Numbered from the stretch's first letter, positions 25,325 through 47,936 are shown. The stretch: 52,610 bases of DNA from Myxococcota bacterium (GCA_036339465.1 JAYZAY010000066.1:1-52610), one strand, 5' to 3'. Notes: generated by a model not told the origin, from the sequence alone. Numbers and translations: made by a program.

Positions 25325-25861
25325 ATGGATAGCTTTCACGCGACCACCATACTCGCCGTCAAAAAAAACAATACAGTAAGCATGGCCGCTGATGGTCAGG
25401 TCACCCTCGGCAATTGTGTCGTCAAACACACCGCAACCAAATTGCGCAAACTCCACGACGGGCAAGTCGTCGCTGGATTCGCCGGGGCTACCGCCGATGC
25501 ATTCACACTCTTCGAAAAATTCGAAGAAAAGCTCAAAGATTATTCCGGAAATATATCGAGGGCCGCCGTGGAACTTGCCAAGGATTGGCGCACCGACCGC
25601 GTACTTCGCCGACTGGAGGCGATGTTATTGGTCGCAGACGTAAACCGCATTCTTTTGCTCTCAGGAACCGGCGATGTGCTCGAACCAGAACACGGCGTGG
25701 CTGCAATCGGTTCGGGCGGAAACTATGCCCTCTCTGCCGCACGGGCCTTAAGAGAGCATTCAACTCTTTCGACCAAAGAAATCGCCACCGAGGCCATGAA
25801 AATAGCTGCTAGCCTCTGCATTTATACAAACGACCAGCTGGTCTTCGAACATCTTGAATAG
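25325..25861 (+). CDS. hslV: ATP-dependent protease subunit HslV
   Basis: HATTILAV (catalytic Thr), [29 protein letters not shown] ribosome-binding site. Confidence 0.98.
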
Positions 25862-25870
25862 GATTTCGTC

Positions 25871-27226
25871 ATGGAACGCTCGACTCAAAGTACCTTATCT
25901 TTCACACCTCGCGAGATTGTTGGAGAACTAGACCGCTATATCGTAGGTCAACAAGATGCTAAAAAGGCGGTCGCAGTCGCCCTGCGAAACCGGTGGCGTC
26001 GTCAGAGGGTCGCCCCTGAAATGCGCGACGAAATTGCGCCAAAAAATATCATTCTCATTGGATCTACAGGCGTCGGTAAAACGGAAATCGCGAGGCGCTT
26101 GGCCAAGCTGGCCAGAGCGCCTTTCGTTAAAGTGGAAGCCTCCAAGTTCACCGAAGTTGGTTACGTCGGACGCGATGTGGATTCAATGATTCGAGATCTC
26201 ATGGAAATCTCAGTACAGATGGTCCGAGCTGAAGAAAAAGAGAGGGTCATGGTACAAGCCAGAGCACTTGCCGAAGAAAGAGCCCTGGATCTGCTCTTAC
26301 CCCGACCCAGTTACGAAGATCCTGTTTCCGAGGAAGAGAATACGTCCAATAGCCGTGAACGGTTGCGGGAAATGCTCCGCAAAGGGGATATGAAAGAGCG
26401 ACAGGTAGAAATTGACGCTGAGGATAGGTCTATCCCCACCATGCAAATATTCTCCAACACCGGCATGGAAGAGATGGGCATGAATATCCAAGATATCATG
26501 GGCCAAATGATGGGACAGCGTAAAACTCGGAAGCGACGGGTAAAAGTTGACGAGGCGATTGACATCTTCGCCCTTGAAGAGGCCGCAAAACTTATTGACC
26601 AGGATTATGTCAATAAGGAAGCAATCTCGCGAGCAGAGAACTCCGGTATCGTGTTTCTAGACGAAATCGATAAAATCGCAAAGCGCGAAGGCGGTGGGGG
26701 TGTCGATGTTTCACGAGAAGGAGTCCAACGAGATATCCTCCCCATCGTCGAGGGCTCCACGGTCACCACTAAATACGGGCAAGTAAGGACCGACCACATT
26801 CTCTTCATCGCCGCCGGTGCCTTTCACGTCAGTAAACCAAGCGACCTCATTCCAGAACTTCAAGGTCGATTTCCAATCAGGGTCGAGCTGGAGTCCCTGG
26901 GTGAAGCTGAACTCCTCCGAATCCTGCAAGAACCCCAGAACGCCCTGCCTAAACAATACCATGAGCTTTTAGCCACAGAAAAAGTATCCCTGGATTTCCT
27001 AGACAGCGGCCTAGTAGCCATCGCCAAACTTGCCGCAGACGTAAATACCCGTGCAGAAAATATAGGCGCCCGGCGCCTACACACCATCATGGAAAGGCTG
27101 CTGGAAGATGTGTCCTTCAACGCACCCGAAAGACCTGGTACCTGCATTTCGGTTGATGGTCCATTCGTGGCAGAAACCCTCAACGAGCTCTATGAACGAG
27201 AGGACCTCAGTAAGTACATTCTTTAA
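25871..27226 (+). CDS. hslU: ATP-dependent protease ATPase subunit HslU
   Basis: [42 protein letters not shown]. Confidence 0.98.
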
Positions 27227-27337: not shown

Positions 27338-28534
27338 ATGAACCAGCTTGATTTCATTCAAAAAATGAAAAATTTTATGACGCCCAATTATGCGCCGGCG
27401 CCTTTCATCCTCACCCACGGCGAAGGCACCAAGGTATGGGACATGGGTGGGAAAGAATACCTAGACTTCACCTCCGGAATCGCAGTGAATTCCCTAGGAC
27501 ACGCCCATCCTAGAGTGGTTGAGGCGATCCGCGAGCAAACGGGGAGACTCTCCCATGTTAGTAACATGTTTCATCATGAGGGTTACCTAAAACTCTGTAA
27601 GAAGCTATGCGAATTGTCCTTCGGAGAAATGGTTTTCTTGTGTAATTCTGGAGCGGAAGCCACAGAGGCATCCATAAAACTGGCTAGAAAGTTCTTTCAT
27701 CGTCGTGGGGAAAATCGACCCAAACTCATTGCCTTCGAAGGTGGTTTCCACGGGCGCACCTACGGCGCCCTCAGCCTGACCCAAAGCCCGAAAGCCCGAG
27801 AGGGATTTGGCCCTTTCCTGCCCGATATCACCCATGTTTCCTACGATGATTTAGAGGCAGTCAGCAGAGCGATCGACCAAGAAACAGCTGCCGTTTTTAT
27901 TGAACCCATCCAGGGTAATACAGGCGTTCGTGTCCCGACCCCTGGCTTCTTCAAAGGACTCGAGGAACTCTGTCGCAAATCTGGTGTTTTGTTGGTGGCC
28001 GATGAAATTCAGACCGGTTGCGGTCGTACGGGACGATGGTTCGGTTACCAACACGAAGACGTGACTCCGGATATAATGCCTTTGGCTAAGGCTATGGGCG
28101 GTGGGCTTCCACTCGGAGCGGTCGTTACTTCGAAACCAATCGGTGAAGCGCTGGCGCTAGGCATTCATGGATCCACGTTTGGAGGCAATCCGTTGGCATG
28201 CGCCTCCGGACTCACAACCCTCGAAGTAATCGAGGACGAAAACCTCATCAGGCGGGCCGAGATGGCCGGTCGCGCTTTCATCAACGAGCTACGCGAAATC
28301 CAGAAATCCACAGAAATTATTTCAGCGGTAAGGGGCCGTGGCTTGATGATCGGACTCGAGCTAACCACGAAAGCTAAGCCAATCTTGGTCGCCTGTCGGG
28401 AATCTGGCTTATTGATAACTGTGGCTGGTCCCAAGGTCTTGCGGATTCTCCCCCCCCTTACGACCTCCGACCTCGAATTTACAAAAGCCCTAGAAATACT
28501 CAAGAAAGTGGTGAGTACCGCTCACGCAACGTAG
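27338..28534 (+). CDS. argD: Acetylornithine aminotransferase (class III PLP-dependent)
   Basis: GIAVNSLGH, NSGAEA, FHGRT, DEIQTG, LAK (PLP Lys), HGSTFGGNP. Confidence 0.8.
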   Translation: MNQLDFIQKMKNFMTPNYAPAPFILTHGEGTKVWDMGGKEYLDFTSGIAVNSLGHAHPRVVEAIREQTGRLSHVSNMFHHEGYLKLCKKLCELSFGEMVFLCNSGAEATEASIKLARKFFHRRGENRPKLIAFEGGFHGRTYGALSLTQSPKAREGFGPFLPDITHVSYDDLEAVSRAIDQETAAVFIEPIQGNTGVRVPTPGFFKGLEELCRKSGVLLVADEIQTGCGRTGRWFGYQHEDVTPDIMPLAKAMGGGLPLGAVVTSKPIGEALALGIHGSTFGGNPLACASGLTTLEVIEDENLIRRAEMAGRAFINELREIQKSTEIISAVRGRGLMIGLELTTKAKPILVACRESGLLITVAGPKVLRILPPLTTSDLEFTKALEILKKVVSTAHAT

Positions 28535-29157
28535 CTCCCATAAAGCTTGTTGATATAATAGGGATAAACATTTCGACGTGCGGTTAGGGGCAATGATTGT
28601 AATCTGCTTGCCGTAGCTTCGGCCGGTAGAAGTGTGACTGTCTTTCCTGCCAAATGGGCCCCCACCAAGTGGCAACCATACACACCGGAATCGTTGTTAA
28701 AACTACATCCGAAAAGCCGCCCTAAAAGTTCTCTAACGGGGTATACTTCGCAAGCACCATCAACCGCCAAGAGTGGGCATTTAAATTTTAGGCTGAGGGC
28801 CAATTCGTCGTGTGCCGCTTGAGCGCGAGGACGATTTGAACTTAGGGCATCGATGGTTTCTTTGTTGGCCTGATAGATCGCCAAGCCGTCATCGACCATT
28901 TCAGTACGACGTTCATCTTCGATATTTTTTTGAACCCAGTCCCAAACATAGAAGAATTCTAAGGGAGTGAGAAACACGCTCTCGTAGCAACAGTCCCCGC
29001 AACCCCGGTGGCAGGGTAAATTGAGGCCAACCGTGTTTTTAGCATTACGAGAATCCACATCATCGTAGATGGACTGAAGTTGTCGAAAAGCACTGGCTAA
29101 GTCAATTCCCATAGCCGTACCAACCTCGACAATATCAACTTTGGGCCACCTACTCAT
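28522..29157 (-). CDS. YkgJ-family (CxxxCxxCC) cysteine-cluster protein
   Basis: CHRGCGDCC and CPLL...ACEVYPVR. Confidence 0.75.
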   Translation of the reverse strand: MSRWPKVDIVEVGTAMGIDLASAFRQLQSIYDDVDSRNAKNTVGLNLPCHRGCGDCCYESVFLTPLEFFYVWDWVQKNIEDERRTEMVDDGLAIYQANKETIDALSSNRPRAQAAHDELALSLKFKCPLLAVDGACEVYPVRELLGRLFGCSFNNDSGVYGCHLVGAHLAGKTVTLLPAEATASRLQSLPLTARRNVYPYYINKLYGSYVA

Positions 29158-29202
29158 ATTTTAATCGTAACGAATCGCGTGGAAAGAGGGAATCCTAAAC
29201 GC

Positions 29203-29228
29203 AAAGAAGCCCCTCGAAAGGGGCTTCT
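29203..29228 (-). terminator. Intrinsic terminator of the barrel/protease unit
   Basis: Perfect 10-bp stem AGAAGCCCCT-TTCG-AGGGGCTTCT followed by TTGCGTTT, about 55 bp after the stop at 29284. Confidence 0.8.
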
Positions 29229-29283
29229 GAACTATTGAATTGATATTGATTATTAGTTTGGATTGGGGCTTGGTCCTATGGGA

Positions 29284-32200
29284 TCAGCCGCCCCACTCCA
29301 TGGTATACGACATGTCTCGGAGAATCTCGACGAAACCAACATGCTGATTTAGCGTCATAAGAGCTGCTTCCTTAGCTTCATCACCAACCGCATTTTCATA
29401 GACGCCCTTCAGTGAGTTGAGCTCAGTTAAGAACTCAGCCCCTATCATCTTCTGGCCATCTGCAGTATTGTTCGGTGTCTGGTAAACCAATCCCGTAACC
29501 GGATGAACGAATTCCTGAATTCCATTTCCGAAGTCCCGACAATCTCGATATCCTTTCAAGCAGATATAAATGTGGTTGTTGAAGTCTTCAGTATAATCGT
29601 AGAACGAGTTAAATCGGGCCATGGGTAGCAACGCCATCCAGTACCGCATTGTCCAGCTCCAACTCGGTGCAATTTTTGTTTGCGCCATGAGGGCGGCATC
29701 AGGCTCGGAGATATTCTTAACATCAACAGGCAAGACATTTACGCCATCGAAGCGGAAAGCATAGTCACTGGGAGTTCCTTTCATACCATTTCCGAAGAGC
29801 TCGAGCATCTCAGGCTGCAACTTCCGCCAATAGGAGAGTGTGAATGAACCACTGTCTAGGTAGTCCGAGAAGTCGCGGTAGAACGAGCCTTCGTTTGATG
29901 TAATTGCGAATAAAGCTGCAATCTTATCCCAGAAATAGCCGATTCGATTCACCTTGTAATAGTACTCCTCAGAAAACGCTGTATCGAAATTGCGGCCTGC
30001 TACACCATCCACAGTCATTGGTGAACTACATGCTTCACCCATGAGCGTAGTCTCGTGAACATAAACACCGTCTTTGAGGCAATGCTTACCTTCAGCGGGT
30101 TGATTTAAGACCGATGCTAGATAGTTCATACCAGTCAATGCGGCTCTCGCCCAGTCGCGCCCGAAACCGAAATCCCCATAGCTGACTTTCTGACCAGAGG
30201 AATCGCTTCCTAAGCTCGAGTCACTGTAGAGATAGTTCCGGAAGACAGTAGACATTGGGTTGAAGAAACGGGACTGTAATCTAGCCATGTGACTGTTGTA
30301 ACTACCCCAATCAAATCGGTCACGTCTCAGGTTCGTCAATGCGTAATAGGCTTTGTGACGAAGAGCGCGATCGTCCATGACCTCGGTGAAATTCGCGCCT
30401 TTGTCCCAAGTCTGACAGGCGATGTTGGATTCCCAACTACGCTCATCTGGGCAGAACTTATACGGAACCGCTTCCATCGCACGATTCGGAACATCGGCTT
30501 CGGCTTCGATAGCATTATAGTACGCCGACTCTTGCTGATAGAAATCTTCTATCGTCACATATTTTCGCTGGTGAAGCGCTGCGACATTCGGTGTTGGATC
30601 CCAATCATCCGCGGTATCTTCGGTATCACGCCCAACATCTTCGCGAACGATGTCCCTAAGATACTGGTTAATGGCCCGATTAAACTCTGTGTTCCCCGCA
30701 TTATAACCAGCAATAACGTTTTGAAAGACTGTAGAATTGGCGATTTCTGGGTCAAAAAGCTTCGGTAAATCATTATAGTCGGTGAAGAAAAGGAGGTCTG
30801 TAAAATACAGAGGCAGTGAACCTGCCTGTCCGTTAAACGGAGGCATAGGAGTTCCGTCAGGCTTAGCGAAAACTTCAATAAGACCACCGTAGCCAAAGGC
30901 GATTGCTGCTTCATCGTATAGACCAATACCTTTGAACGAGTCGGCATAAAAACGCGCATCGTAATCCATGATGGTGGAGTACTTATAAGCTTCTTGTCCT
31001 GTGGACTTACCACCCACAATCTCATCGATGTCACCAGTATGAGCAGGGTTGACAGCGCCTTCCTTAAGAACACGTTCGGTCTCAGGATTGTAATTCGCCC
31101 AGTACTCCTTACGGAAATTTAATGGGTCCATGGAACCTTCAAAGTTGTGCCGAAGTCCTAAAGTATGTCCAACTTCGTGCGCCATAACCGCCTCGTAGAT
31201 ACGGGCTCTCATGTAGTCGTAAACACCTTGCCAATCTTTGCCTTCGTCTTTCAGTTTCTGAGCTATCCACAGCATACCATCATCACCAAATTCATCAGCC
31301 ATCATGATAGATTTAGCACGTAACATGCGACGTGCTTCAGCCTGCTTCTTACCAAAATCGCTGTCCATCAAATACGAAAGCGCACTGAATTCGGTACCTT
31401 GAATCTGGTCAGCCGTGAGCTGCATAGGCTCACCTGCTGCCTGAGCGTGGGCCAATTCCATTGCCGCTTTCTTCGGTCCCATAACCCGACGGAATTCGTC
31501 ATTGGTTAGCAACTCTTTATCGATGGACGAACCTGCCACTCGACGTAGTTTTGCATCCAAGGAGGCGAGGTTGGCATCATGGTCATGGTTCCCAAAGCGG
31601 GAATGAAGACCAATTTTCCCGCGATATTCCAACCCACTTTGGTGCTCTAACGGTAATTTCTGCGCCGCCAATCGTTCAAAGTCGGGATTGCCGCGAGTTT
31701 CAAAGATTGAGCCTCCGCGCTGGCTTAATTCATCTAGCGTGCGGTCTAGGGCCTGGCTAGCATTGGCATTCTTGCGGCGTTCATCGAGTTCTTCTCGAAC
31801 ATTGGTACCATTGAGAATGTCGGCAACCTTGCCACCATCGTTCATCATGGTCACCAAGTCAGCCGCATAGGCTGCGTATCTATCGATGGCCGCACCGTAG
31901 ATATTCGCGTTACCAGAGATGAGCTCGCCGGTGACCGGGTCAGCCGCTGAGGGCCCGTATCCCAGGGGACCAGACTGCATGGGGGTATCCACCCAATGAA
32001 GGAAGCTGTAGCGTAGATCGCCTGGCTTCTGCCAAGTAAATTCGCCGTTGCTTGCCCATTCTAGAAGTGAACACGCCCGCTTAAGATTGCCTTGCTTAAT
32101 GGTCGAGATGCCGTATTCCGCGAGTAGCTCTCCGTGGTCGTTTTTCTGCGCGTAGCTGGTAGCCGTTTGAAGAGAACAACTGTTGAAAGCCCATTTGTAG

Positions 32201-33417
32201 ATGGGATTGATGTCTTCAAGCTTGTATTGGTCCGTAAAGGTCTTTCGTCTCTCGTAGACGGTTTTTCGAAAAGAGTCGTCCCACTCTTTGACCAGCTTAT
32301 CGGTGGCATCCTTAATCATCGAATCCTTCGGAAAATCCACATTGGTATGATAAACAACCTCGCCTTCCCACCGCTGAGACATTGGTATCAACCTTCCATC
32401 GGCGGCGTATGTTTTCTTCCAGATATTCCAGCGATTTGCCCAACGGATGCGGTTGTCACGGGTAAGCTGGAATTCGTCATCCCAAGCCTGACGGCTGGTG
32501 CGGAAAAAACCGAACCGCTCGAACATTTCAACTTTCCACTCACGACAATCAGCAAGGTCCTCTTCTTTGCATCGGCGCAGCGCCTTACCCTCAGTGATTC
32601 CTCTTGAGGCATCGTTGAAAGTCGCCTTGATGGGCAGATGGTCGGGGTAAGCAAGGGGTTCATAGTCTCTGTTTTCAATTTTGAGAAAAGACATCTTCAC
32701 TTTCGTGAGTGAGCCACCGCAATGGTAGTACTCACCAAGCGTGTAGATACAGGTGTAGAGGTCTGGCGCTAGAATATATTGTCCAACAATATTGATGCTA
32801 TTGGGTTTTATTTCTGCCCGGTGCGGATTGTCGTACTCATGCTCTTGGATGTAGTACGGGTGCGACGCACTCATGTAGTTGATGAACCCCGCGATTGAAC
32901 CGGGATCTGAAATCAGGTTGGTGCTCCAATCGACGCGAACGTGCTCACGCTCATACCAAGGGCGGGTGGATACATCTTCCACAATAACGTTGGTCTGCTC
33001 ACCCGTAGCCGGGTTGTACTCCCGAAAGACGTCGATATGCGAGACGGAAAACGCGGCGATGGGATTGCCGTAGAAATCAACGTCACTGTCTTCACTTTCG
33101 GCATTCTCAAGCATTTCGAAGCTGCGGTATGCAGTGAGAGTGTCTTCTTCTAGTCGCCACTTCACTCTGTCCATATCCCCTTCGAGTCCCTCGAAGAGGT
33201 AGCCTTGGTTATACTGAGCCTCAATGATCGTGGGACGGTAATACCAGTCACCATCAAATTGACTCTTCTTGATTAGATTTGGCTGTGTTCGATCAATGTC
33301 CTCGACATCACCGGCACATGCTGTCAGCCACAAGGCTGCCAATCCTGCTATCATTAATCGCTTGAAGTTGCCCATTCTGCAATCTCCCATTCTAAAAATA
33401 GATTCTCGTGCTTTCAT
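29284..33417 (-). CDS. Large lipoprotein zinc metalloprotease (metzincin, DUF4953/EcxA-like catalytic domain), paralog A
   Basis: Lipobox LTAC; HEVGHTLGLRH (HExxHxxGxxH, 31147-31179); Met-turn STIMDY. Alternative start ATG 33375 also has a GGAG site. Confidence 0.85.
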   Translation of the reverse strand: MKARESIFRMGDCRMGNFKRLMIAGLAALWLTACAGDVEDIDRTQPNLIKKSQFDGDWYYRPTIIEAQYNQGYLFEGLEGDMDRVKWRLEEDTLTAYRSFEMLENAESEDSDVDFYGNPIAAFSVSHIDVFREYNPATGEQTNVIVEDVSTRPWYEREHVRVDWSTNLISDPGSIAGFINYMSASHPYYIQEHEYDNPHRAEIKPNSINIVGQYILAPDLYTCIYTLGEYYHCGGSLTKVKMSFLKIENRDYEPLAYPDHLPIKATFNDASRGITEGKALRRCKEEDLADCREWKVEMFERFGFFRTSRQAWDDEFQLTRDNRIRWANRWNIWKKTYAADGRLIPMSQRWEGEVVYHTNVDFPKDSMIKDATDKLVKEWDDSFRKTVYERRKTFTDQYKLEDINPIYKWAFNSCSLQTATSYAQKNDHGELLAEYGISTIKQGNLKRACSLLEWASNGEFTWQKPGDLRYSFLHWVDTPMQSGPLGYGPSAADPVTGELISGNANIYGAAIDRYAAYAADLVTMMNDGGKVADILNGTNVREELDERRKNANASQALDRTLDELSQRGGSIFETRGNPDFERLAAQKLPLEHQSGLEYRGKIGLHSRFGNHDHDANLASLDAKLRRVAGSSIDKELLTNDEFRRVMGPKKAAMELAHAQAAGEPMQLTADQIQGTEFSALSYLMDSDFGKKQAEARRMLRAKSIMMADEFGDDGMLWIAQKLKDEGKDWQGVYDYMRARIYEAVMAHEVGHTLGLRHNFEGSMDPLNFRKEYWANYNPETERVLKEGAVNPAHTGDIDEIVGGKSTGQEAYKYSTIMDYDARFYADSFKGIGLYDEAAIAFGYGGLIEVFAKPDGTPMPPFNGQAGSLPLYFTDLLFFTDYNDLPKLFDPEIANSTVFQNVIAGYNAGNTEFNRAINQYLRDIVREDVGRDTEDTADDWDPTPNVAALHQRKYVTIEDFYQQESAYYNAIEAEADVPNRAMEAVPYKFCPDERSWESNIACQTWDKGANFTEVMDDRALRHKAYYALTNLRRDRFDWGSYNSHMARLQSRFFNPMSTVFRNYLYSDSSLGSDSSGQKVSYGDFGFGRDWARAALTGMNYLASVLNQPAEGKHCLKDGVYVHETTLMGEACSSPMTVDGVAGRNFDTAFSEEYYYKVNRIGYFWDKIAALFAITSNEGSFYRDFSDYLDSGSFTLSYWRKLQPEMLELFGNGMKGTPSDYAFRFDGVNVLPVDVKNISEPDAALMAQTKIAPSWSWTMRYWMALLPMARFNSFYDYTEDFNNHIYICLKGYRDCRDFGNGIQEFVHPVTGLVYQTPNNTADGQKMIGAEFLTELNSLKGVYENAVGDEAKEAALMTLNQHVGFVEILRDMSYTMEWGG

Positions 33418-33431
33418 GATTCTCGGTCTCC

Positions 33432-36400
33432 TTAAAGGACGCTGCCTTCTTCGTAAACTCGGTGAATGAGTCGGTTGTATTCAAGGAACTGCTCCACGCG
33501 CTTGATTTCATATTCGAGATTCTCTTTCTGATTCTCAAGCTGAGTTTTCTTGGTTGTTCTCTTTTCGTCCGTTAGACCCCTATTTTCACCCATAACCGGT
33601 GTGTTTGAGTTCAGGTCAGCAACGACTGTTTCAAGTTGAGCTAGCTGGGAAACTAGGACACCACAGCTTTTAACCAGCTTAAAGGATGCATCTTGAACCA
33701 AGGGTTTGTCGTCAGTTCCACCGGTTCGAAGTGCCACAAAGGTCTTTCCAGCAGCATGAACCTTGCATTCAATAGTGTCTGCACCAGCTGAATTCACTTC
33801 ATCTTCAGCGCCCTTGAGCCAGACCCGAGCATGCTTCGAAAAATCTAGGGTTTGATCCAGCGGACTTGTCAGAAAGGCCATTCCGTAAAGGAGAGCAGTT
33901 CGTTGCAGGTTGGTTACTAAGGGGGGTAGCACAACCGGTGTCGTCTGGGCAGAGGAACTGCCAAAGACTGGTGAGAGTTGCTGCTCCAACACAAAGGTAG
34001 ATTCGGAACCATCCTCCGTAGCTTGCGCACTGGCAAAAGGTGCAATGGTATTACCGATAGAGTGTCGATTTCGGACCATCATGTTGGCGACCTGGTCGAC
34101 GATGCCGGGGAACCATCGGTTCAGGCCGATGGAGTAGGCGGTATAATCCACTGTTTGGTCTATTCTGAAGAACCGGGCGAAGGGGTCCATCAATTCCATT
34201 AGGGCGTACTGTTTATCCCAGTATGTCCCGACGTAGGAAAATTGCCAATCCACGTAGTCCTCGGTAAATCCCAGAAAGAGAGGATGAACCCCAGGCTGGG
34301 TCTTGAGTGACAATTCAGTTTGGTAGCCAGTGGGCGCTTCCAGATCAGAAGAACAGTCATAGTTAGACAAACCATTGTCATCAAATTCAGTGCTCGTATA
34401 GGGAATGTAGAGGTGTTCTCGCTTACTCACGTCAGGATTCAAAACACACTTGCGTGGGTCAGTCACAAGACTTCCATTGTCGTTCCCATCAACAAGATTG
34501 AGCACTTTATAGCCAGACTCGCACTTGGCACATAGGTAGTACTCGTCTGGTTCCGGAATGCCCATAACCTCGTTCATCATGTTCAGACCATCTTCAACGG
34601 ACGCAAGCATGTCTTCGTAGAGCTCGTGTCCCTCATCGAAGACACCACCGTTGGACGTCCAATTAAATCTCTCTGGCTGTTGCTTGTAGAGGTAAAGGTA
34701 GTGGTAAGTCATAACGATGTCTCGGAAAACACCGTATCCGCGGTTCATAACTCCGAAATTCATGTTGAGCCGATTCCGAAGATAATTGGTAAACAGGTAG
34801 TAGTTTTTGTATTTTACGCGACGCGCTTCTTGAATTTCCCGCTGGTTCGCGCCGAAGTCAAAAGCTTTACAAGTGGGTGTAGCGCCCTGAAATTCATCAC
34901 TACAAAACATGTAGGGTACTTCGTTACGCAGTTGTTGGCTGTATTCGGTCTTCTTCAATTTTTCCTTGGTCCAATCCCAAACAATATCTTTTCGGTTTGC
35001 AATGTCGCTAACGGAAGAAAAGTAAGCCGGGGTAGCACCCTTCGGAGTGGCTAAGCGATTGTAGTCGTGTTCCATTCGGAACTGACGTAGATCATCCCCT
35101 CCCTTGCTCGGATCGATGAAAGTTTCGACGATCTGGCCATAGCCAAACTTGGCTGCGGCCTTGTCGTAGAGCCCTAGGCCTTGAAAATCTGCATTGATTT
35201 TGCCGTGGTAGTCCATAATCGAGCTGTATCGATATTCATCTCTACGCGCGTCTAGTTGGTCGTCTTTGCTCTTGGATGAGAGATTCCAGAACTCTTGATT
35301 GAAATTCAAAGCATCATACGACCCCTCGTAGTTGTGTCGCAGACCTACGTTGTGGCCAATTTCGTGAAGAGCAACTGCTTTAAAAATCATTTTGGTCAGT
35401 TCTTTTTGCTTTTCAGAGAAGGTCTTGCCTTTTAGAACTTTGGCCAGTCCAACCAAGGAATCATCCAAGGCCGCCATCGGACAGAAAGTTCGCTCACTGA
35501 AAAACCGCTCGGCTTCAGGCCGGATATGGCGCTCGAATTCAGCCCGCTTAATTGGAGATGCCCTGTCATAAAGTTCATCGCTGACATGTTGCCCAGGGCG
35601 CCATTCGCCACGGGAGGCCATCATGAGATCTTCATCGCGAATGATATATTCACGCTCCAGGTGAGTGCCACCAACTCGATTAAGTCGCTCTTGGAAATGG
35701 CGGCTATTGTCTAATTTGGTAAGAGCGGGAAGACCGCTTTCTTTAATTAGCTCCGAACGCTTTCGGATGTGTTCGAATAACTCAGGAGATGGTCGTCGGT
35801 TCGCCGCACGTTCTACAATGGATTCGATGCTAGAAGGATCAACTTGGTCTAGGTTTCGCCCTGTCTGTCCCTCTGGAAGAGTCACGCCCTGAAGAAGCTC
35901 AGCCATGGTAATTTCATCATTGATGTACTCGACATATTCGGCCGCTCGGGTAGCGGCGGATTCGATGGTCCAACCCAGGATATAAGAAGAAGACACAACG
36001 TTACGTCCATTGGTTGGGTCCGCTAACATAGGTCCATAACCGCTCCAAGTTGCAGGAACGCGGTTATCGATCCAATAGAGCATATTGATTCGCGGGTCGC
36101 CGATCTGCTGCCAAGTGAATGGTTCCGCAGTGCCCATGGAATGATACTCAAGCGCGGCGCAATAGTTGACAAGGTTCTCCATGTCTAACTGCGCATCTTT
36201 ACCGGCCTTGGCTTGTATATCTGCCTGAGCTTTGGTGGCCACTTCTGGATTGTCTGTGGAATATTTTTCGACTGTAGAAAAAAGGCAATTGTTGTCTTTG
36301 ATATAGAACATCTGTGGAACATCTGTGATATTCTTGCCCTGAGCAGATGCAACCGTTTCCTTAAACACCTTGTTCCACTCATTTTCGATGTCGGTTACGG

Positions 36401-37481
36401 TATCCCGCAGGTACTCAGGAAAATCCCAGTTTAGATAATAAACAATAGGCTTGGGCGTCCTTTGGACTGGGTCAATTCGGGTACCATCGTCGTTTAAGGA
36501 TTTTTCCCAAATATCGAAACGAATGAGCATGTGGTCAACACCACTTTGCGTAATGCCTCGGTGGTGGTCGTAAACAAGACGGTCGATTCGGAAAAAACCG
36601 AAGCGTTTAAATACGTCGGCTCGCTCAACCTCACCGGTAGCATCATCGACAATCTCGTGACCGTTGTCGTCGTGGAGTTCCACCGAGTCGGGATAGTATA
36701 GTTTTTCGTAGTGTTGATTCGCCTTTTCATCAACTTCCCAAAAAGCGTGTCGAACTTTGATTTCGCCCGCGCCACAACTGTAGGGGTCCATGCCCATGTC
36801 ACGGCAGGTGTAGGGATCAGATTCAACATAATGGTTGTTAACAAAATCCATATAACCGGACTCGGGAGTCAAACGCGCACGCCAGGGACTGGTGCTATCG
36901 TTTTCGTCCACAAAAAAGGATCCACCGGCACCTCCGTCCAGGTCGTAGTAGTCGACAGGTAACACAAAGGGATTGCCAGAAAGCTGGGTGCTTGACCAAC
37001 GGAGTTTCGCATACTCTCGCTCGTACCACGGCCGGTCGACTACGTTTGGCACGATAACGTTGGTCTTCTCGCCAGTGGATGCGCTGTACGCCCGATTAAT
37101 ATCGAAATGACTGCTAACGGGTATCGCGATAATCGGTTCGCCGTAGTCCTCGTGGGTCGATCCGTCGTCCTTGGCCTCTTCTGAGCCGGGCACGTACTCA
37201 TAGTCACGATAGGCAACGAGAGCGTCTTCAGTGAACTCCCAACGCAACCGCTGGATAATGAATAAGTCACCACTGCCAATGCTGGCATAGGGACCCACCG
37301 TTTCTGCTGCATCAACAACAGTCCGTCGATAGTACCAACTTTTGTTCAACAAGTCTGATTTCTTGATATAACCAGGTTGAACAAGATTAATATCACCTTT
37401 ATCTCCTGCACAACCGATGAAGAGTGCAGAGATAGAAAGCGTTGCCACCAGTAACTGGGTCAAGCGTTTACCAAGCCCCAT
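33432..37481 (-). CDS. Large lipoprotein zinc metalloprotease (metzincin, DUF4953/EcxA-like catalytic domain), paralog B
   Basis: Lipobox FIGC; HEIGHNVGLRH (35334-35366); Met-turn SSIMDY; GGAGG ribosome-binding site. Confidence 0.85.
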   Translation of the reverse strand: MGLGKRLTQLLVATLSISALFIGCAGDKGDINLVQPGYIKKSDLLNKSWYYRRTVVDAAETVGPYASIGSGDLFIIQRLRWEFTEDALVAYRDYEYVPGSEEAKDDGSTHEDYGEPIIAIPVSSHFDINRAYSASTGEKTNVIVPNVVDRPWYEREYAKLRWSSTQLSGNPFVLPVDYYDLDGGAGGSFFVDENDSTSPWRARLTPESGYMDFVNNHYVESDPYTCRDMGMDPYSCGAGEIKVRHAFWEVDEKANQHYEKLYYPDSVELHDDNGHEIVDDATGEVERADVFKRFGFFRIDRLVYDHHRGITQSGVDHMLIRFDIWEKSLNDDGTRIDPVQRTPKPIVYYLNWDFPEYLRDTVTDIENEWNKVFKETVASAQGKNITDVPQMFYIKDNNCLFSTVEKYSTDNPEVATKAQADIQAKAGKDAQLDMENLVNYCAALEYHSMGTAEPFTWQQIGDPRINMLYWIDNRVPATWSGYGPMLADPTNGRNVVSSSYILGWTIESAATRAAEYVEYINDEITMAELLQGVTLPEGQTGRNLDQVDPSSIESIVERAANRRPSPELFEHIRKRSELIKESGLPALTKLDNSRHFQERLNRVGGTHLEREYIIRDEDLMMASRGEWRPGQHVSDELYDRASPIKRAEFERHIRPEAERFFSERTFCPMAALDDSLVGLAKVLKGKTFSEKQKELTKMIFKAVALHEIGHNVGLRHNYEGSYDALNFNQEFWNLSSKSKDDQLDARRDEYRYSSIMDYHGKINADFQGLGLYDKAAAKFGYGQIVETFIDPSKGGDDLRQFRMEHDYNRLATPKGATPAYFSSVSDIANRKDIVWDWTKEKLKKTEYSQQLRNEVPYMFCSDEFQGATPTCKAFDFGANQREIQEARRVKYKNYYLFTNYLRNRLNMNFGVMNRGYGVFRDIVMTYHYLYLYKQQPERFNWTSNGGVFDEGHELYEDMLASVEDGLNMMNEVMGIPEPDEYYLCAKCESGYKVLNLVDGNDNGSLVTDPRKCVLNPDVSKREHLYIPYTSTEFDDNGLSNYDCSSDLEAPTGYQTELSLKTQPGVHPLFLGFTEDYVDWQFSYVGTYWDKQYALMELMDPFARFFRIDQTVDYTAYSIGLNRWFPGIVDQVANMMVRNRHSIGNTIAPFASAQATEDGSESTFVLEQQLSPVFGSSSAQTTPVVLPPLVTNLQRTALLYGMAFLTSPLDQTLDFSKHARVWLKGAEDEVNSAGADTIECKVHAAGKTFVALRTGGTDDKPLVQDASFKLVKSCGVLVSQLAQLETVVADLNSNTPVMGENRGLTDEKRTTKKTQLENQKENLEYEIKRVEQFLEYNRLIHRVYEEGSVL

Positions 37482-37511
37482 GATATCCTCCCAATAAAGA
37501 GATGTTGAATG

Positions 37512-37527
37512 TACGACATATGTCGTA
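37512..37527. repeat. Perfect 16-bp palindrome in the barrel/protease-B intergenic gap
   Basis: TACGACATATGTCGTA is its own reverse complement. Confidence 0.9.
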
Positions 37528-37531
37528 ACAA

Positions 37532-38599
37532 TTAGTAGGATCCTGAAATTCCCAAAGAAATTTCCCCGTAGTTATTTGCCGCCCTATTCTGCCCAAAGGA
37601 GTTGTAGAAAAAGGGCCACATAATAGCTCGATTATCTGCGGTTTGTGCTGGATGACTCGCGTCCATACTTAGACTCAAGCGATAAGACACCGGTGAATCG
37701 GGCGTCAGTAGCTCGGAAAGAGAAAATGACAGCGCTAGGGATTCAGACAATGAATCGCTGCGCCCCATCCCTGTATCCGCGTGGGGTGCGGTGAGGTCGT
37801 CTTCTTCATCGATAATGGCGTGGCGGAAACTATTACTGAGGGACACAGAGTAACTGATGCTCAGAGTTTCCAGGATTTGGTATTCAAATCCAATGTTTGA
37901 AGTAACTGCGAAGTTTAATGTGCCTGACCCTGACACACATTCGTAGACAGCGTGTATTCCACCTTCGCCTGCGGAAGCCACATTGCAGTTCCCAAAATCA
38001 CTTAGGCGTGGAGTCTCTGTGTATTTGGAAGACACCTTGTTCTGGCTGAAAGCCTTTGTAAAACCCGTGGCAAGAGAAATACTAAAATCGCCAAAGGTAC
38101 GATTTAGTCCCAACCCCGCTTTAAGTGTAACCCAACGCTTGTTGATATTGAGGCTCCGATAGGAGGTGGGTAAAGTGACCCTGAGATAAGGCGAAAAACC
38201 AATTCCTGTGAGGTCGTCCTTAAGCCCAGAGGCCGATAGGCTTAGACTAGAATCGGAAGGGTCAAATCTGCGTGCGGGATTGGAGTCCGGCTCGGTTAAT
38301 TCCAGAGTAAAGCCCATGCGTGGTGAAACTTTGAATTTCTGCCCCAGGATGTCGAAACTGTAAAATCCCGAGAGGCCCCAGGCCTGATAAACAAGGCCTC
38401 TAGAAGCTCGGAGGGTGTCATCCTGTAAAAAGGAAGCACTTCCAACGGCGTGGGTAAGACTCAAACTTACGCCATAGTTCTTCCTAGGCTTCTCCTCTGC
38501 CGTCTTTTTCGCATCGTCAGAGCTTACGGAAACTTCTGCTGCGTAGGCTGCGGCCGGTAAACACCAAAGTAGGGCTAAGAAAACCAAGTTGTTCTTCAC
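37532..38599 (-). CDS. Putative outer-membrane beta-barrel protein of unknown family
   Basis: GTG start after GGGAG; signal peptide ending AYA; many alternating amphipathic strands (YGVSLSLTH, LSISYSVSL, YRLSLSMD); C-terminal EISLGISGSY ends in an aromatic residue. Confidence 0.7.
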   Translation of the reverse strand: MKNNLVFLALLWCLPAAAYAAEVSVSSDDAKKTAEEKPRKNYGVSLSLTHAVGSASFLQDDTLRASRGLVYQAWGLSGFYSFDILGQKFKVSPRMGFTLELTEPDSNPARRFDPSDSSLSLSASGLKDDLTGIGFSPYLRVTLPTSYRSLNINKRWVTLKAGLGLNRTFGDFSISLATGFTKAFSQNKVSSKYTETPRLSDFGNCNVASAGEGGIHAVYECVSGSGTLNFAVTSNIGFEYQILETLSISYSVSLSNSFRHAIIDEEDDLTAPHADTGMGRSDSLSESLALSFSLSELLTPDSPVSYRLSLSMDASHPAQTADNRAIMWPFFYNSFGQNRAANNYGEISLGISGSY

Positions 38600-38806
38600 G
38601 TTCAATCTCCCCGATAAAAATAGAATACGGAATAATCTCATTAACCTGAGGTCTCAAAGTGGCCCGAGGCCTCGTTCTAATGGCGTAAATTACTCAGAGT
38701 TATCTAGTTGTTCCATCTACTCTTCTAAAAGGACAGCCGCCATGAATGGAGGCGTCTACAAGGTACCCGCTTGTAGCTCGGTTCCCTCTAGGCTTAGGGC
38801 AAGGTT

Positions 38807-38835
38807 TTGTTACAGTCAGCACACATTACCGTCAA
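38807..38835 (-). promoter_or_regulatory. Putative sigma70-type promoter of the barrel/protease unit
   Basis: Minus strand TTGACG-N17-TAACAA with an AT-rich upstream tract. Confidence 0.35.
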
Positions 38836-38905
38836 GTAAATAATTCGAAAATCCCTAAATTTATGTGGCCAGAGCAAAGTTCTGATGCACCGAAATGATC
38901 AACAA

Positions 38906-40027
38906 TTATCGAGCCCTCGTCCTTCTCAATTGGGCTCCTGTATAAGTACGGCGGACTTGGCCTAGACGGTCGATCCTGTCCATCGCCACTTGGTTGGCGG
39001 CTTTAAAGGTCGGAATTTTCCGTTCATTGGCCCGCTTAAAGACCGCCGAGAGAATATCATAGACGCCCTCAGCTTGCGTTAGGGCGCGCTCTTGGTTGTA
39101 TCCCTCCAATTCGTTGGCCACATTGATCAGCCCTCCCGCATTGATCACAAAGTCAGGGGCATAAAGGATTCCTTTTTCAGCCAATCGAGCACCATCCACC
39201 TCCTCGTTGCGCAATTGATTGTTCGCTGCGCCGGCCACGATCTTACATTTCAGATCAGGAATTGTGGATTCGTTGAGGGCCATGCCCAGTGCACAGGGTG
39301 CGAAAATATCACAGTCGACAGCATGGACCTCTTCAGGGGCGACGGCTTCCACCCGATGGCCCGCAATGGTTCGACGCACAGCATCAATATCCACATCGGC
39401 CACCACAACTTTCGCGCCAGCATCAGCCAAGTGGCCCGCCAAATGAAATCCCACATGACCGACGCCTTGGATAGCAACGGTCAGCCCGTCGAAGGTGGAG
39501 ATACCATATTTCTCCTCAATGGCAGCACGCATGCCAGAAAAAACACCGAGGGCGGTCACCGGCGATGGATTCCCAGATCCACCTAAGGCCCTTGAAATGC
39601 CCACGACATGGTCCGTTTCCATACGCATCATCTCCATGTCAGCCATAATCGTTCCGGAGTCTTCGGCGGTAATATACCGTCCTGCCAATCCCTGGATAAA
39701 CCTCCCCATTGCTCTCCACAAAAGTTCACTCTTATCCTTTTTTGGATCGCCGATAATAACTGCCTTGCCTCCCCCCAGATTCAAACCAGCAACGGCTGCT
39801 TTGTAAGTCATCCCTCGAGACAATCTTAGAACGTCAGTCAACGCATCCATTTCAGTTTTGTAGGGATACATTCGACAACCACCAAGTGCTGGCCCAAGGA
39901 CAGTATTGTGAATCCCAATGATTGCCCGTAACCCGCTCACGCTATCGCGGCAAAAAACCACTTGCTCATGGTCGTAATTTTCTAACTCTCCGAAGACCAA
40001 GTATCCATCTTGTGTTGTATTCATCAT
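38906..40027 (-). CDS. ldh: Leucine dehydrogenase (Glu/Leu/Phe/Val dehydrogenase family)
   Basis: GPALGGCRM, GMTYK, GGGKAVI, YITAED, GVGHVG, GAANNQL, INAGG. Start ATG 40027 after GGAAGGAT. Confidence 0.88.
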   Translation of the reverse strand: MMNTTQDGYLVFGELENYDHEQVVFCRDSVSGLRAIIGIHNTVLGPALGGCRMYPYKTEMDALTDVLRLSRGMTYKAAVAGLNLGGGKAVIIGDPKKDKSELLWRAMGRFIQGLAGRYITAEDSGTIMADMEMMRMETDHVVGISRALGGSGNPSPVTALGVFSGMRAAIEEKYGISTFDGLTVAIQGVGHVGFHLAGHLADAGAKVVVADVDIDAVRRTIAGHRVEAVAPEEVHAVDCDIFAPCALGMALNESTIPDLKCKIVAGAANNQLRNEEVDGARLAEKGILYAPDFVINAGGLINVANELEGYNQERALTQAEGVYDILSAVFKRANERKIPTFKAANQVAMDRIDRLGQVRRTYTGAQLRRTRAR

Positions 40028-40207
40028 ATCCTTCCATGGGATGCCATTTTGCGCCGATATATTGGAAAGGTACGTCCGGTCAATAAGTCGATACGACACA
40101 CTGCATCAGGATAAACCTATTTACGAGCATTTCGGCACCAAGTGCGCTACAAGAATACTGAGGTCAACTGAGAAGCCAAGACTCACGGACGGTCCCACGC
40201 ATTTACT

Positions 40208-41989
40208 ATGATAACAGTCAAATTGAACATAGATTCCGAACCTGAGATCATCGAGTTTCATGAATTTGAGGCTCGGGTAAGAGGCGGGCTCATCCTACCT
40301 CAGGCCCTGATCCGTTTCCCAGTGATCACAGGAAACCAATTTGTACCCGCATCATCACTTGAACTTTTCGATAATCTCTACAACGGCAGAGAGCTTGCAT
40401 TTACAAAATACTTCAGCCTTGGAAGGTTCCCGGTCCTCACCTGCATCATTATCACTGCCGTCATCTCCGTCTACTATCTGGATCCGCCTTCCACACCCCA
40501 GAGCTCACAAAACCTTCTGGAACGAGGCGCCAAAAGTTGGGACCTCATGGTGGAACTGGGAGAGTGGTGGAGACTCCTTTCGGCAAATTTCGTGCATGTA
40601 TCACCCCTGCATTTGTGGATGAACTCTTTCTTTCTCTTTAACCTCGGCGGTCCCACCGAAGCCATCTTTCGTCGAAGAGATTACGCCGCAATTATCTTTG
40701 TATCAGCCATAGCAAGCATGCTCTCATCAGCACTCGTTAATCCTGTGGTTAGCTGTGGTGCCAGTGGAATCATTTTTGGTGTTTGGGGCGCATTAAGCGT
40801 GTTTGGCTTTCGGTACCGCAGTATCCTACCCGAACGCTATAAAAAATATTTCCTGTACGTCGTCTTTCCCTATTCGCTAGTCGCCCTCTATATGGGGATA
40901 GCCATCCCTGATGTCGACAATTGGAGTCACCTAGGGGGCATCGTTTCCGGGTCCATTTACGGAATATTCTTGAGACCACGGCTATTGGAAACACCCCGCT
41001 TTACCACGAAACTTAGAAATGTCGCCGTGGGTGTACCAGCTTTGCTCATTATAGTCGGCACACATCACCCCATGGGAACGGGAAAACTCATCCCACTCAG
41101 CATGACCGCTGGCCACGGCCTTGAAATCCGGCTCCCCGATTACTGGTACCTAACGGTTTCTAAACGAGACCGAAAAACCGATTCACGCGCTTACCACAAC
41201 CGAGCTGAAGTCTCCTTCGGATTTGAGGCCCGGATGAATTCCAAACCAACGACACTAAAACGATTTACCGAAGAATTTATTGAAATCGAATTGGCCGAAC
41301 AACTCGAAGCACATCATGCTAAAGGCCTCAGAATCAAAGACCCCGTCCAATGGACGCTCGATGGCCATTCCTGCGCGCTGATTATTGCCGAAGTCGTAAC
41401 AGCTCAAACTGCACTCAAACTACACTATTACCTGATCGCAAGAGGCTACTATCAATACATTTTGAGTTCCTCTAGCCCAATATGGTTGGCCAAATCGTAC
41501 GAGCCCATCTTTGAGGAAATTCTTAGTACAGTTAGAGTATCGCCACCACAGAAACTTAAAGATGCTTGGCGATATTATCAAAAAGCGAATTCCGCCAACT
41601 CCCTCGTTAAATTGGGGCTACAGCTAGGTCAGACCGGACAATTTAAGGAAGCCATTTCCACTCTTACGAAAGCACAAAAAATGGAACCCAATAACGGCCT
41701 CGCTTACGCGGTCTTAGGAAAATTACTATTCGATTATAATGTTTCATCCGACGAAAGTTGCGAACTTCTACAGCAGGCAATTCTCAAACAGGAGTGGACA
41801 GAGGATTTGATCTTTCTGGCAATCCAAGCCCACCTTCGTTGCGAACGAAAAGCATTGGCCAGAAAATTATTGCATGCGGGACTCAAGCGATTCCCCAAAG
41901 ATCGCAAACTTAAGAGAATAGCGAAGAACCTTGGACCGGCGGTCAAATTTCAAGTTCCACCCCGATCGGACAATGATCAGACCCCATGA
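40208..41989 (+). CDS. Rhomboid intramembrane serine protease with N-terminal soluble domain and C-terminal soluble and TPR domains
   Basis: WRLLSANFVH..HLWMN, GASG (Ser), HLGG (His); TPR-like LGQTGQFKEAISTLTKAQKMEPNNGLAYAVLG. Confidence 0.88.
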   Translation: MITVKLNIDSEPEIIEFHEFEARVRGGLILPQALIRFPVITGNQFVPASSLELFDNLYNGRELAFTKYFSLGRFPVLTCIIITAVISVYYLDPPSTPQSSQNLLERGAKSWDLMVELGEWWRLLSANFVHVSPLHLWMNSFFLFNLGGPTEAIFRRRDYAAIIFVSAIASMLSSALVNPVVSCGASGIIFGVWGALSVFGFRYRSILPERYKKYFLYVVFPYSLVALYMGIAIPDVDNWSHLGGIVSGSIYGIFLRPRLLETPRFTTKLRNVAVGVPALLIIVGTHHPMGTGKLIPLSMTAGHGLEIRLPDYWYLTVSKRDRKTDSRAYHNRAEVSFGFEARMNSKPTTLKRFTEEFIEIELAEQLEAHHAKGLRIKDPVQWTLDGHSCALIIAEVVTAQTALKLHYYLIARGYYQYILSSSSPIWLAKSYEPIFEEILSTVRVSPPQKLKDAWRYYQKANSANSLVKLGLQLGQTGQFKEAISTLTKAQKMEPNNGLAYAVLGKLLFDYNVSSDESCELLQQAILKQEWTEDLIFLAIQAHLRCERKALARKLLHAGLKRFPKDRKLKRIAKNLGPAVKFQVPPRSDNDQTP

Positions 41990-45058: not shown

Positions 45059-45526
45059 CTAAACATCCAAATCTATATCTTCGCGAACGTGAACCACGGC
45101 TTTAAAACAAAATCCTTCACACTGGAAAAAGACCTCACAATCCACTCTAGAACCCGGAAATCGCACCGAGTATTCAGCACCAATTGTTACAACTGGCAAA
45201 CCCAATTCACAGGAGCCTTCAAGCAACGACTTAAAGCTACCGCCCGTCATATTTGCAAGCTCGCCCATTGCATCTTCGATATCTTCATCGGTTGCCTCGT
45301 CAGGGGCCACCTCAAACATTAGTCCTGCACACTTTGTTGCCAAAGCCCCAGGAAATGTCAATGTCGCCATTCCCTCCCATGTTCCACTAATCTGAACAGT
45401 GGCTGTTACATAGCGAATACCTGCTTCACTGGGAAGAGCCTCCGCTAGAGGCGAAACATCTAGTTCCAAAATGGTAGAAAAAATATTCGGGACGACCTCT
45501 AAAATATTTTCTGTAGTGGTTGACAT
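45059..45526 (-). CDS. cheX: Chemotaxis phosphatase CheX
   Basis: DAMGELANMTGG (ExxN) and LGLPVV. Confidence 0.88.
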   Translation of the reverse strand: MSTTTENILEVVPNIFSTILELDVSPLAEALPSEAGIRYVTATVQISGTWEGMATLTFPGALATKCAGLMFEVAPDEATDEDIEDAMGELANMTGGSFKSLLEGSCELGLPVVTIGAEYSVRFPGSRVDCEVFFQCEGFCFKAVVHVREDIDLDV

Positions 45527-45535
45527 AGTTTCTCC

Positions 45536-46360: not shown

Positions 46361-46403
46361 CTTTAACTTCCGCCATTCCTAGTTCATAGGCTCTAACCCA
46401 TGA

Positions 46404-47525: not shown

Positions 47526-47533
47526 TGGAGTTC

Positions 47534-47902: not shown

Positions 47903-47936
47903 AAAATATCTCCACTGGTTTTATTCTCCACATACT

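Follow-up and report, generated by a model that had tools for sequence, protein, structure and literature searches.

A conserved envelope module of Myxococcota that appears to pair an unnamed outer-membrane barrel family with giant lipoprotein metzincins

Lipoprotein surface display in diderm bacteria outside the Proteobacteria and Bacteroidota is largely unknown, and few barrel-dependent routes have been described. According to the published accounts of Slam, or type 11 secretion, DUF560 barrels move surface lipoproteins (PMC5449769, PMC8406197). FapF, the amyloid exporter of Pseudomonas, is reported as a barrel of 12 strands through which unfolded polypeptide passes and whose gene shares an operon with those of its substrates (PMC5557850). 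Proteins of the COG4313 group were implicated in the uptake of hydrophobic molecules (PMC4493636), and the outer-membrane lipoprotein CglB of Myxococcus is described as needing partner beta-barrels, in connection with the GltA/B/H/K outer-membrane platform, for its retention and surface exposure (PMC9946355). Here, we analyzed a stretch of 52,610 nucleotides (nt) from a Myxococcota bacterium (GCA_036339465.1, JAYZAY010000066.1:1-52610; here referred to as the window), in which three consecutive genes had been predicted to form an undescribed envelope system of one outer-membrane beta-barrel and two giant lipoprotein metzincins. Sequence comparison supports the view that this locus is a conserved envelope module of the Myxococcota, in which a barrel family without a name is combined with giant metzincins of an uncharacterised family.

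The module comprises three open reading frames (ORFs) on the minus strand. Gene 1 (37532..38641, product P0001) encodes the putative barrel, with 369 amino acids (aa) when translated from the ATG at 38641. It is followed by gene 2 (33432..37481, P0002) for protease A of 1349 aa and by gene 3 (29284..33417, P0003) for protease B of 1377 aa. The gap between barrel and A is 50 nt and that between A and B 14 nt, exactly as first predicted. Matches among relatives with an E-value of 0 place the three ORFs far beyond chance.

The pairing of barrel and protease was analyzed in 41 genomes (G000 to G040), i.e. the genome of the window and 40 relatives, which public records label as Myxococcota or 'Deltaproteobacteria'. 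The protease was present in 33 and the barrel profile matched in 30 of them. Both were found in 30 genomes, the protease only in three (G011, G024 and G036), the barrel only in none and neither in eight. All 30 barrel-positive genomes therefore hold the protease as well, and co-occurrence had been set beforehand as one of the tests by which the original prediction could fall. In a sample of the phylum, the barrel family was found in 79 of 151 genomes. Linked modules are present in several almost closed genomes, e.g. G124, G059, G109 and G128, whereas two genomes of about 9 Mb from the phylum were without the module.

Furthermore, 60 barrel loci outside the order of the window were chosen by barrel score alone, blind to the proteases. 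In 43 of these, a giant protease of Pfam family DUF4953 was located at most 600 nt away on the same strand. The barrel came first in 37 of the linked loci and the protease in six, and a second protease followed in 15. Starting from the proteases, a barrel-family gene was found beside the protease in 16 of 18 protease loci from other genomes, the exceptions being G008 and G024. Six of these 18 loci had been picked without a prior barrel match, and an adjoining barrel was carried by four of the six.

Genomes with several proteases carry several barrels, each beside its own protease (C332, C185 and C228 in G001; C55 and C116 in G030). A tree of 73 proteases (FastTree on an hmmalign alignment, midpoint root, support values not inspected) placed the first-position (A) and second-position (B) proteases in separate clades. 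Since each of the two clades spans several families, the A/B pair is old. The tree distances of barrels and neighboring proteases were correlated in a Mantel test of 57 pairs (r = 0.71), a value reached by 0 of 999 permutations. These data show that, throughout the phylum and in several paralogous versions, barrel and protease are passed on together as one unit. No third gene travels with the module, as the most widespread cluster of flanking genes was found in 10 of 64 loci, all of them from the order of the window.

Several observations weigh against taking barrel and proteases as one system, and some of them would fit a linkage without joint function, in which the barrel is an unrelated porin carried beside the protease genes. 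A barrel match was lacking in 3 of the 33 protease-positive genomes. No protease adjoined the barrel in 17 of the 60 barrel loci, three of which lie at contig ends. The genome G008 keeps the A-B pair without an adjoining barrel; here a gene for a Glu/Leu/Phe/Val dehydrogenase abuts A directly, an arrangement like that of the window with the barrel gene missing, and the barrel relative is located elsewhere. In G008 and likewise in G025, the barrel relatives are surrounded by unrelated genes, e.g. Tex, SPFH and PilZ-Hsp70. The linkage is thus not obligatory, as G008 demonstrates. Additionally, shared ancestry raises both the Mantel correlation and the counts in the genome table, and the correlation shows inheritance and duplication as a unit, not more. 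However, linkage without joint function has to account for same-strand adjacency in 43 loci that cover many families, two gene orders and several paralog lineages, and for the lack of any barrel-only genome among the 41. We regard it as very improbable, and consider it quite likely that barrel and proteases act together.

One related locus, labelled as a Myxococcota metagenome-assembled genome, was found by a search for related loci with an alignment of five sequences. In the locus L091 (G079:C1:481000-497000) the protease matches fall into three frames or pieces and those of the barrel into two; it is likely a decayed copy of the module.

Signal peptides and lipoboxes were identified by eye and by regular expression. 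The gene 1 product shows an N-terminal hydrophobic segment ending in AYA followed by AE, an alternating sequence typical of beta-strands and a terminal Tyr, features that had been recognized correctly in the original prediction. Among 24 members of the barrel family the C-terminal residue is mostly aromatic or hydrophobic. The gene 1 product matched no Pfam family (E<=0.1) and no NCBIfam family, and none of the 24 members had a significant match to any family in Pfam. An AlphaFold model computed from a seven-sequence alignment contained 12 long strands, with a mean predicted local distance difference test score (pLDDT) of 60.6 and a predicted template modelling score (pTM) of 0.63; the Atlas's own model of the protein reached a pTM of 0.71. 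The connections between the strands alternate between short turns of 2-11 residues and long loops.

A Foldseek search of this model against the PDB yielded 226 matches at E<=1e-3, and all those listed were outer-membrane barrels. The best were FapF (E 8.1e-9, template modelling (TM) score by target 0.54-0.58) and the COG4313 channel 4rl8 (E 8.9e-8). All 50 rows listed by VIA, a search independent of Foldseek, were outer-membrane barrels as well. The COG4313 protein 4rl8_A (Z 13.3, root-mean-square deviation (rmsd) 4.7, 240 of 267 residues aligned) and FapF 5o65_A (Z 13.3, rmsd 5.0, 223 residues aligned) were at the top, together with OmpG (Z 13.1) and KdgM (Z 12.5). The predicted barrel was in this way recovered in the model and in its structural neighbors. 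As the top VIA matches tie within one Z unit, the fold class of a small outer-membrane barrel is firm, but the subclass is not. As modelled, gene 1 appears to encode a 12-stranded outer-membrane barrel of a family that has a name in neither Pfam nor NCBIfam.

This family is large. In a collection of 1.84 billion, the profile of the 24 members matched 1623 cluster representatives when E<=1e-3 was required, 1093 with E<=1e-10 and 427 with E<=1e-30. Almost all of the 150 representatives listed had a length of about 320-555 aa, and a few of 213-297 aa covered the profile only in part. In none of these 150 did a fusion to a further large domain appear.

Four conserved motifs were found in the barrel alignment, namely T-x-P-x-x-N-P-x-R-R, L-P-T-S-Y, E-D-E-x-T-S-P-x-A-D-x-G-x-G-R-x-D and, as the fourth, H-P-A-Q-T-A-D-N..I-M-W-P-F-F-Y..N-R-A-A-N-N-Y-G. 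In the model they are located in the long loops that connect strand 3 with 4, 5 with 6, 9 with 10 and 11 with 12. With a periplasmic N-terminus, as in classical outer-membrane proteins, these conserved loops would be external or would line the lumen. In gene 1, about 20 residues with a pLDDT of about 30 are located between the signal peptide and strand 1. This region is variable and of low complexity in the relatives, some of which carry 60-150 extra residues before strand 1.

FapF is the top Foldseek match of the modelled barrel and one of the two matches sharing the top VIA score, where it is tied with plain channels, namely the COG4313 channel and, within one Z unit, OmpG. However, sequence identity is only 10-14%, the barrel alignment shows no conserved plug helix or coiled coil before strand 1, and the partners here are lipoprotein metzincins instead of amyloid subunits. 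Likewise, a resemblance to the COG4313/Phenol_MetA_deg proteins (4rl8, Pput2725) would lie in the modelled fold, at a Z of 13.3 that does not separate them from other small barrels. Here identity is 7%, none of the 24 barrel members matches PF13557 at E<=1, and the part of the COG4313 report available to us describes no protease partner for this protein (PMC4493636).

The fold of the barrel also fits a different role of the module, which is the main alternative to the export or docking role discussed below. The proteases may reach the surface by a general route and cut external protein there, and the barrel may serve as a substrate-specific pore for the uptake of peptides, an arrangement resembling a polysaccharide-utilisation locus in its logic and differing from it in its parts. 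The closest folds, with Z scores of 12-13.3, include the uptake channels COG4313 4rl8, OmpG, KdgM, NanC and Tsx, and the nearest named family to the Atlas structure is PF13557 Phenol_MetA_deg (TM score 0.57-0.59). The lumen could be narrowed to a constriction by the conserved long loops. Furthermore, a Glu/Leu/Phe/Val dehydrogenase is encoded directly upstream of the module in the window as well as in G008, which fits amino-acid catabolism, and the organism is marine; its DNA is present in metagenomes from 10 studies labelled marine or seawater. However, a peptide pore would hardly need an own barrel for each protease paralog, with mirrored trees. In addition, neither a gene for a peptide permease nor one of the TonB type accompanies the module, and 0 of the 24 barrel members match a channel family of Pfam. 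Taken together, we think that a peptide pore is a rather unlikely role for the barrel.

The products of genes 2 and 3 were proposed as paralogous metzincins of approximately 1350 aa with a lipobox, and this was confirmed. Over 1203 aligned residues, the identity between A and B amounts to 32.8%. The zinc motif is HEIGHNVGLRH in A (residues 706-716, 35334..35366, minus strand) and HEVGHTLGLRH in B (residues 747-757, 31147..31179, minus strand). The Met-turn follows as SSIMDY in A (residues 753-758, 35208..35225, minus strand) and as STIMDY in B (residues 814-819, 30961..30978, minus strand). The three zinc-ligand His residues, the catalytic Glu, the Met of the Met-turn and the Tyr two residues after it were invariant in all 73 full-length relatives, which come from all clades. 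The Gly of the zinc motif was kept in 71 of the 73, and so was an Asn after the third His. Since the catalytic residues are kept across these 73 relatives, A and B would both be expected to be active enzymes.

In Pfam, DUF4953 (PF16313, 'Met-zincin') was the sole significant family for both proteins; A scored 36.5 bits and B 40.5 bits, at a gathering threshold of 24.2. The profile of 316 positions was matched only in part, at 3-100 in A and at 9-43 in B. In 13 other protease relatives that were scanned, 12 scored above the threshold and one reached 23.1, and the longest match covered the positions 3-148. Judged by these profile matches, A and B stand at the edge of DUF4953, as the threshold is exceeded and the coverage is partial. 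The proteins here also differ from this family in their length of about 1300-1400 aa, in a beta domain at the N-terminus, in some 180 helical residues inserted into the catalytic domain and in a large part at the C-terminus that belongs to no family. Public records name the relatives 'zinc-dependent metalloprotease'. No open-access paper was found on DUF4953/PF16313, DUF5117, DUF5118 or TIGR03952.

Sequence searches against the PDB gave 0 matches at E<=1 for single sequences, and a profile of 58 sequences gave matches at the level of the motif only (E>=0.022). AlphaFold modelling of A residues 25-1224 with 58 homologs resulted in a confident model with a pLDDT of 81.6 and a pTM of 0.86. When the whole 1200-residue model was compared with the PDB by Foldseek, nothing was found at E<=1e-3, so that no fold was assigned to the beta domain at the N-terminus (about residues 25-290) or to the C-terminal part. 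A VIA search with the model residues 269-774, however, had EcxA as its first match (Z 10.4, rmsd 3.5, 190 residues aligned, 17% identity). Serralysin and MMP-9 (Z 8.2 each) came next, followed by archaemetzincin, snapalysin, other MMPs, ADAMs and astacin; rows 1-9 were metzincins throughout. The zinc motif, the Met-turn and, for A, the modelled fold assign both proteins to the metzincin clan.

In the model of A, some 180 mostly helical residues (approximately 480-660 of the model) are inserted into the catalytic domain and split it. Because of this large insert the metzincin domain would span about 500 residues. Most of each protein had been described as lacking any nameable domain. This holds for the sequence libraries, whereas the model of A shows a metzincin domain of this extent. 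A beta-rich N-terminal domain (model residues 1-265) begins about six residues after the lipobox Cys, and the C-terminal part is large and mainly helical, with weak repeat-like matches only (Z 5-7, not meaningful).

The solved metzincins (EcxA 4l6t, serralysin 1akl, MMPs and astacin) share the catalytic fold, the third His of HExxHxxGxxH and the Met-turn with the proteins analyzed here. The Tyr two residues after the Met of the Met-turn is shared with astacin and serralysin, and in astacins and serralysins this Tyr acts as a zinc-ligand switch. In contrast, identity to the solved structures amounts to 13-18%, and the proteins of the module are distinguished by the split domain, the Asn after the third His, their giant multi-domain build and a predicted lipid anchor.

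This anchor would be attached at the lipobox, which reads FIGC in A (Cys24, 37410..37421, minus strand) and LTAC in B (Cys34, 33316..33327, minus strand). Each lipobox is preceded by a hydrophobic stretch, and in both proteins an Ala follows the Cys. The Cys column was conserved to at least 90% among 58 protease homologs, and a crude regular expression found a lipobox in at least 52 of 73 protease relatives, which is a lower bound. Both proteases would be predicted to be lipidated and sorted to the outer membrane.

Bacterial lipoproteins face the periplasm by default, and complexes of a barrel with periplasmic lipoproteins are known from LptDE and BamA-E. A and B could be anchored in the periplasmic leaflet of the outer membrane and act together with the barrel in quality control of envelope proteins, in remodelling or in the processing of outer-membrane proteins. 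The very short tether after the lipobox Cys would agree with this placement. So would the position of the module in the core chromosome, beside dcw, hslVU and topA and not in an island. On the other hand, the conserved parts of the barrel are found in the long loops and not in the short turns, and several diversified paralog modules per genome look substrate-facing rather than housekeeping. Moreover, 8 of the 41 genomes gave no match to the module, several of them being at least 95% complete, so that it is not essential envelope machinery. A periplasm-facing complex seems quite improbable to us.

We tentatively prefer, at slightly less than even weight, to see the barrel as a dedicated partner that exports the proteases or docks them at the surface. 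All three proteins would be exported by Sec. A would then be lipidated at Cys24 and B at Cys34, and both would be sorted to the outer membrane. The barrel would move A and B to the outer face, or hold them there, by means of its conserved long loops, and one barrel would serve two proteases in modules of the A/B type. Both enzymes would cut proteins outside the cell. As the organism is marine, particulate or dissolved protein or prey would be the likely substrates.

The one-to-one co-diversification of barrels and proteases fits specificity between proteins better than a generic pore, and the link between them would be specific in function and probably also physical. Export or docking is favored by this co-diversification, by one barrel per two proteases and by the conserved parts being long loops. 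By analogy, it is also favored by FapF, which passes unfolded polypeptide, and by CglB, which depends on partner barrels.

However, several points count against export or docking. The fold does not favor export over uptake, as channels score the same Z as FapF, and plain substrate channels (COG4313, OmpG, KdgM, NanC and Tsx) are among the nearest solved folds. A 12-stranded barrel is narrow for a 150-kDa protein unless this is unfolded. Confidence in the model of gene 1 is moderate only, with a pLDDT of 70-88 in the strands and below 50 in the conserved loops. A complex prediction that combined residues 50-369 of the barrel with the N-terminal domain of protease A had a score of 0.00 and gave no answer; controls were not run, and it is evidence neither way.

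The similarity to Slam consists of an outer-membrane barrel gene adjoining one or more lipoprotein genes and, by the published accounts, of one barrel being able to serve more than one lipoprotein. In contrast to Slam, the 24 barrel members here showed no match to DUF560 (E<=1) or to a TPR domain, and the barrel has 12 strands. Its N-terminal part is short, variable and disordered, and the cargo would be proteases of 150 kDa. Membership in the Slam/type 11 secretion group was thus rejected, because the DUF560 barrel and the TPR-like domain are absent, although the adjacency is present. SusC/SusD likewise combine a surface lipoprotein with a co-encoded barrel for the handling of a polymer; the likeness lies in this logic, and the receptor there has 22 strands, versus 12 here. 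A SusCD assignment was rejected as well, as no Pfam match to a TonB-dependent receptor, a plug or SusD was found in the three proteins or in the 24 barrel members. From the parallel to Slam and SusCD that was drawn originally the functional logic stands, and since the defining domains of both are absent, the analogies are functional only.

CglB offers a comparison from the same phylum, as an outer-membrane lipoprotein with partner beta-barrels, though by analogy only. The proteins themselves, a VWA-domain adhesin and a motility complex in the available account, are unrelated to those of the module (PMC9946355). No open-access paper was found that combines metzincin, lipoprotein, myxobacteria and outer membrane. 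In agreement with the original prediction, no characterised system matches the module by sequence, by fold beyond generic classes or in the open-access literature.

A third paralog is encoded elsewhere in the same genome (contig C58:11128-15804; L008:5129-9805). This protein, P0013, is a lipoprotein-like metzincin of 1226 aa that scores above the Pfam cut-off of DUF4953 around HExxHxxGxxH and the Met-turn. Directly upstream of it lies an ORF for a beta-rich protein of 320 aa (P0012), and a gene for an ammonium transporter is located downstream. Direct BLAST of P0012 against P0001 was not significant. A comparison with the barrel profile by hhalign gave a weak match (probability 61%, E 8e-5, 135 columns including the L-P-x-S motif), and P0012 aligns along the barrel family. 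The protease tree places P0013 among modules with a single protease and a detectable upstream barrel.

In six unlinked barrel loci (L053, L059, L062, L066, L081 and L093; e.g. L066:6792-12181) the barrel gene is oriented divergently beside genes of an ABC transporter. These encode an ABC ATPase and two FtsX-type permeases of about 266, 700 and 447 aa. The trio was scanned against Pfam and NCBIfam in L066, and that of the other five loci is presumed from matching ORF lengths and order. The transporter is of the MacB/Lol type and not LolCDE itself, because its best NCBIfam matches, to LolD and LolC/E, were far below the cut-offs. A gene for a Ser/Thr kinase and one for Hsp70 are found near several of the six loci. 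The MacB/Lol-type neighbors hint at a link of the barrels to export or lipoprotein traffic.

Going further, the barrel family, with its more than 1000 sequence clusters, might represent a new lipoprotein device with 12 strands, similar to FapF and COG4313 and unrelated to Slam, which would bring giant lipoproteins of the metzincin type onto or through the outer membrane of the Myxococcota and dock them by its conserved loops. The unlinked members beside MacB/Lol-type ABC transporters would then belong to a dedicated trans-envelope route for lipoproteins. This wider proposal is speculative, and we rate it as unlikely.

The module offers a clean genetic handle, since it consists of two or three genes without another conserved partner, occurs throughout the phylum and is present in several co-diversified copies per genome. 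Its enzymes are giant metzincins of unknown specificity with intact catalytic residues. If they act outside the cell, they may matter for marine protein turnover or for predation. As an exporter or docking site, the barrel would represent a new class among the secretion and surface-display systems; as a peptide pore, it would make the module a protein-utilisation locus of a new build.

The three genes had been proposed to form one transcription unit with a promoter and a structured leader upstream and a terminator downstream. Spacing, ribosome-binding sites, a single terminator and the conserved gene order favor an operon, whereas promoter and leader were not borne out. An intrinsic-terminator-like hairpin is located at 29205..29228 on the minus strand, with a 10-bp stem including six G-C pairs, a 4-nt loop and then a T-rich tail (TTGCGTTT). 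It lies 56 nt past the stop codon of B and is the sole terminator of the three-gene unit. In a promoter scan, no sigma-70-like site reaching 9/12 was found upstream of gene 1, and nine promoter-like sites were observed in the whole region versus 12.7 expected, i.e. fewer than in the shuffles. The candidate promoter TTGACG...TAACAA was rejected, as its -10 hexamer, read by eye, matches at 3/6 positions only. The same applies to the leader. Its 169 nt fold at -46.8 kcal/mol compared with -42.7 +/- 4.1 kcal/mol for shuffled sequences (z = -1.0), 33 of 200 shuffled leaders fold as well as the real one, and no Rfam match at E<=1 was obtained in the window at 28400-40300.

The start of gene 1 is more likely the GTG at 38599, resulting in 355 aa, than the ATG at 38641. 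It is favored because a Shine-Dalgarno-like GGGGAG (38607..38612, minus strand) precedes it by 7 nt, and because the Atlas record and the 355-aa database representative P0004 begin there. For protease A, a Shine-Dalgarno-like GGAGGA (37491-37486, minus strand) was found 4 nt before the ATG. In B, AAGGAG lies upstream of the first ATG and GGGAGA upstream of a later ATG at 33375. B may start at this later ATG instead, which would leave it a textbook lipoprotein signal peptide of 20 residues and would extend the A-B gap to 56 nt.

The 50-nt spacer between barrel and A contains a perfect palindrome of 16 nt at 37512..37527 (TACGACATATGTCGTA), with one match in the window versus 0.02 expected. It was not found in the loci of the relatives. 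This palindrome could serve as a binding site for a protein or form a small hairpin in the RNA.

Among the data sets that contain the stretch, none was listed as RNA. Parts of each of the three genes, within 29240-38471, were covered by short contigs from three marine runs labelled RNA-Seq, the label being a guess. The deepest of these contigs (about 21x) is located on protease A at 36250-36902. An identical loose end of eight letters occurs at two places on the contigs and looks like an adaptor remnant. As the runs were found via these genes and contigs cannot show transcripts, expression is not deduced from them.

The window corresponds to contig C66 of a 4.17-Mb assembly with 102 contigs that is 92.8% complete. 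Its G+C content is even (0.46-0.51). On the side of the lower coordinates the module is neighbored by topA, gidA-like and xerC-like genes, hslVU and an aminotransferase gene, and the dcw cell-division cluster is located at 102-15472. The other side carries, beyond the dehydrogenase, genes for a rhomboid-TPR protein and phosphoenolpyruvate carboxykinase as well as a che cluster. This chemotaxis cluster (cheX, cheR, cheB, MCP and cheA-cheW at 45059-51487) and hslV-hslU (25325-27226) form an ordinary housekeeping context. Within the dcw cluster, mraZ (15008-15472) is followed after just 212 nt by an ftsI-like gene for a penicillin-binding protein (12685-14796). No ORF of at least 150 aa for rsmH was found between the two; smaller ORFs, e.g. 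ftsL, were not sought.

Past the terminator, an ORF on the minus strand (28522-29157) encodes 211 aa with a weak match of the CxxCxxCC type (E 6e-4). It recurs beside the module in 10 loci, and a gene cluster of the upstream flank (38906-40099 of the window, minus strand) recurs in eight, both only within the order of the window.

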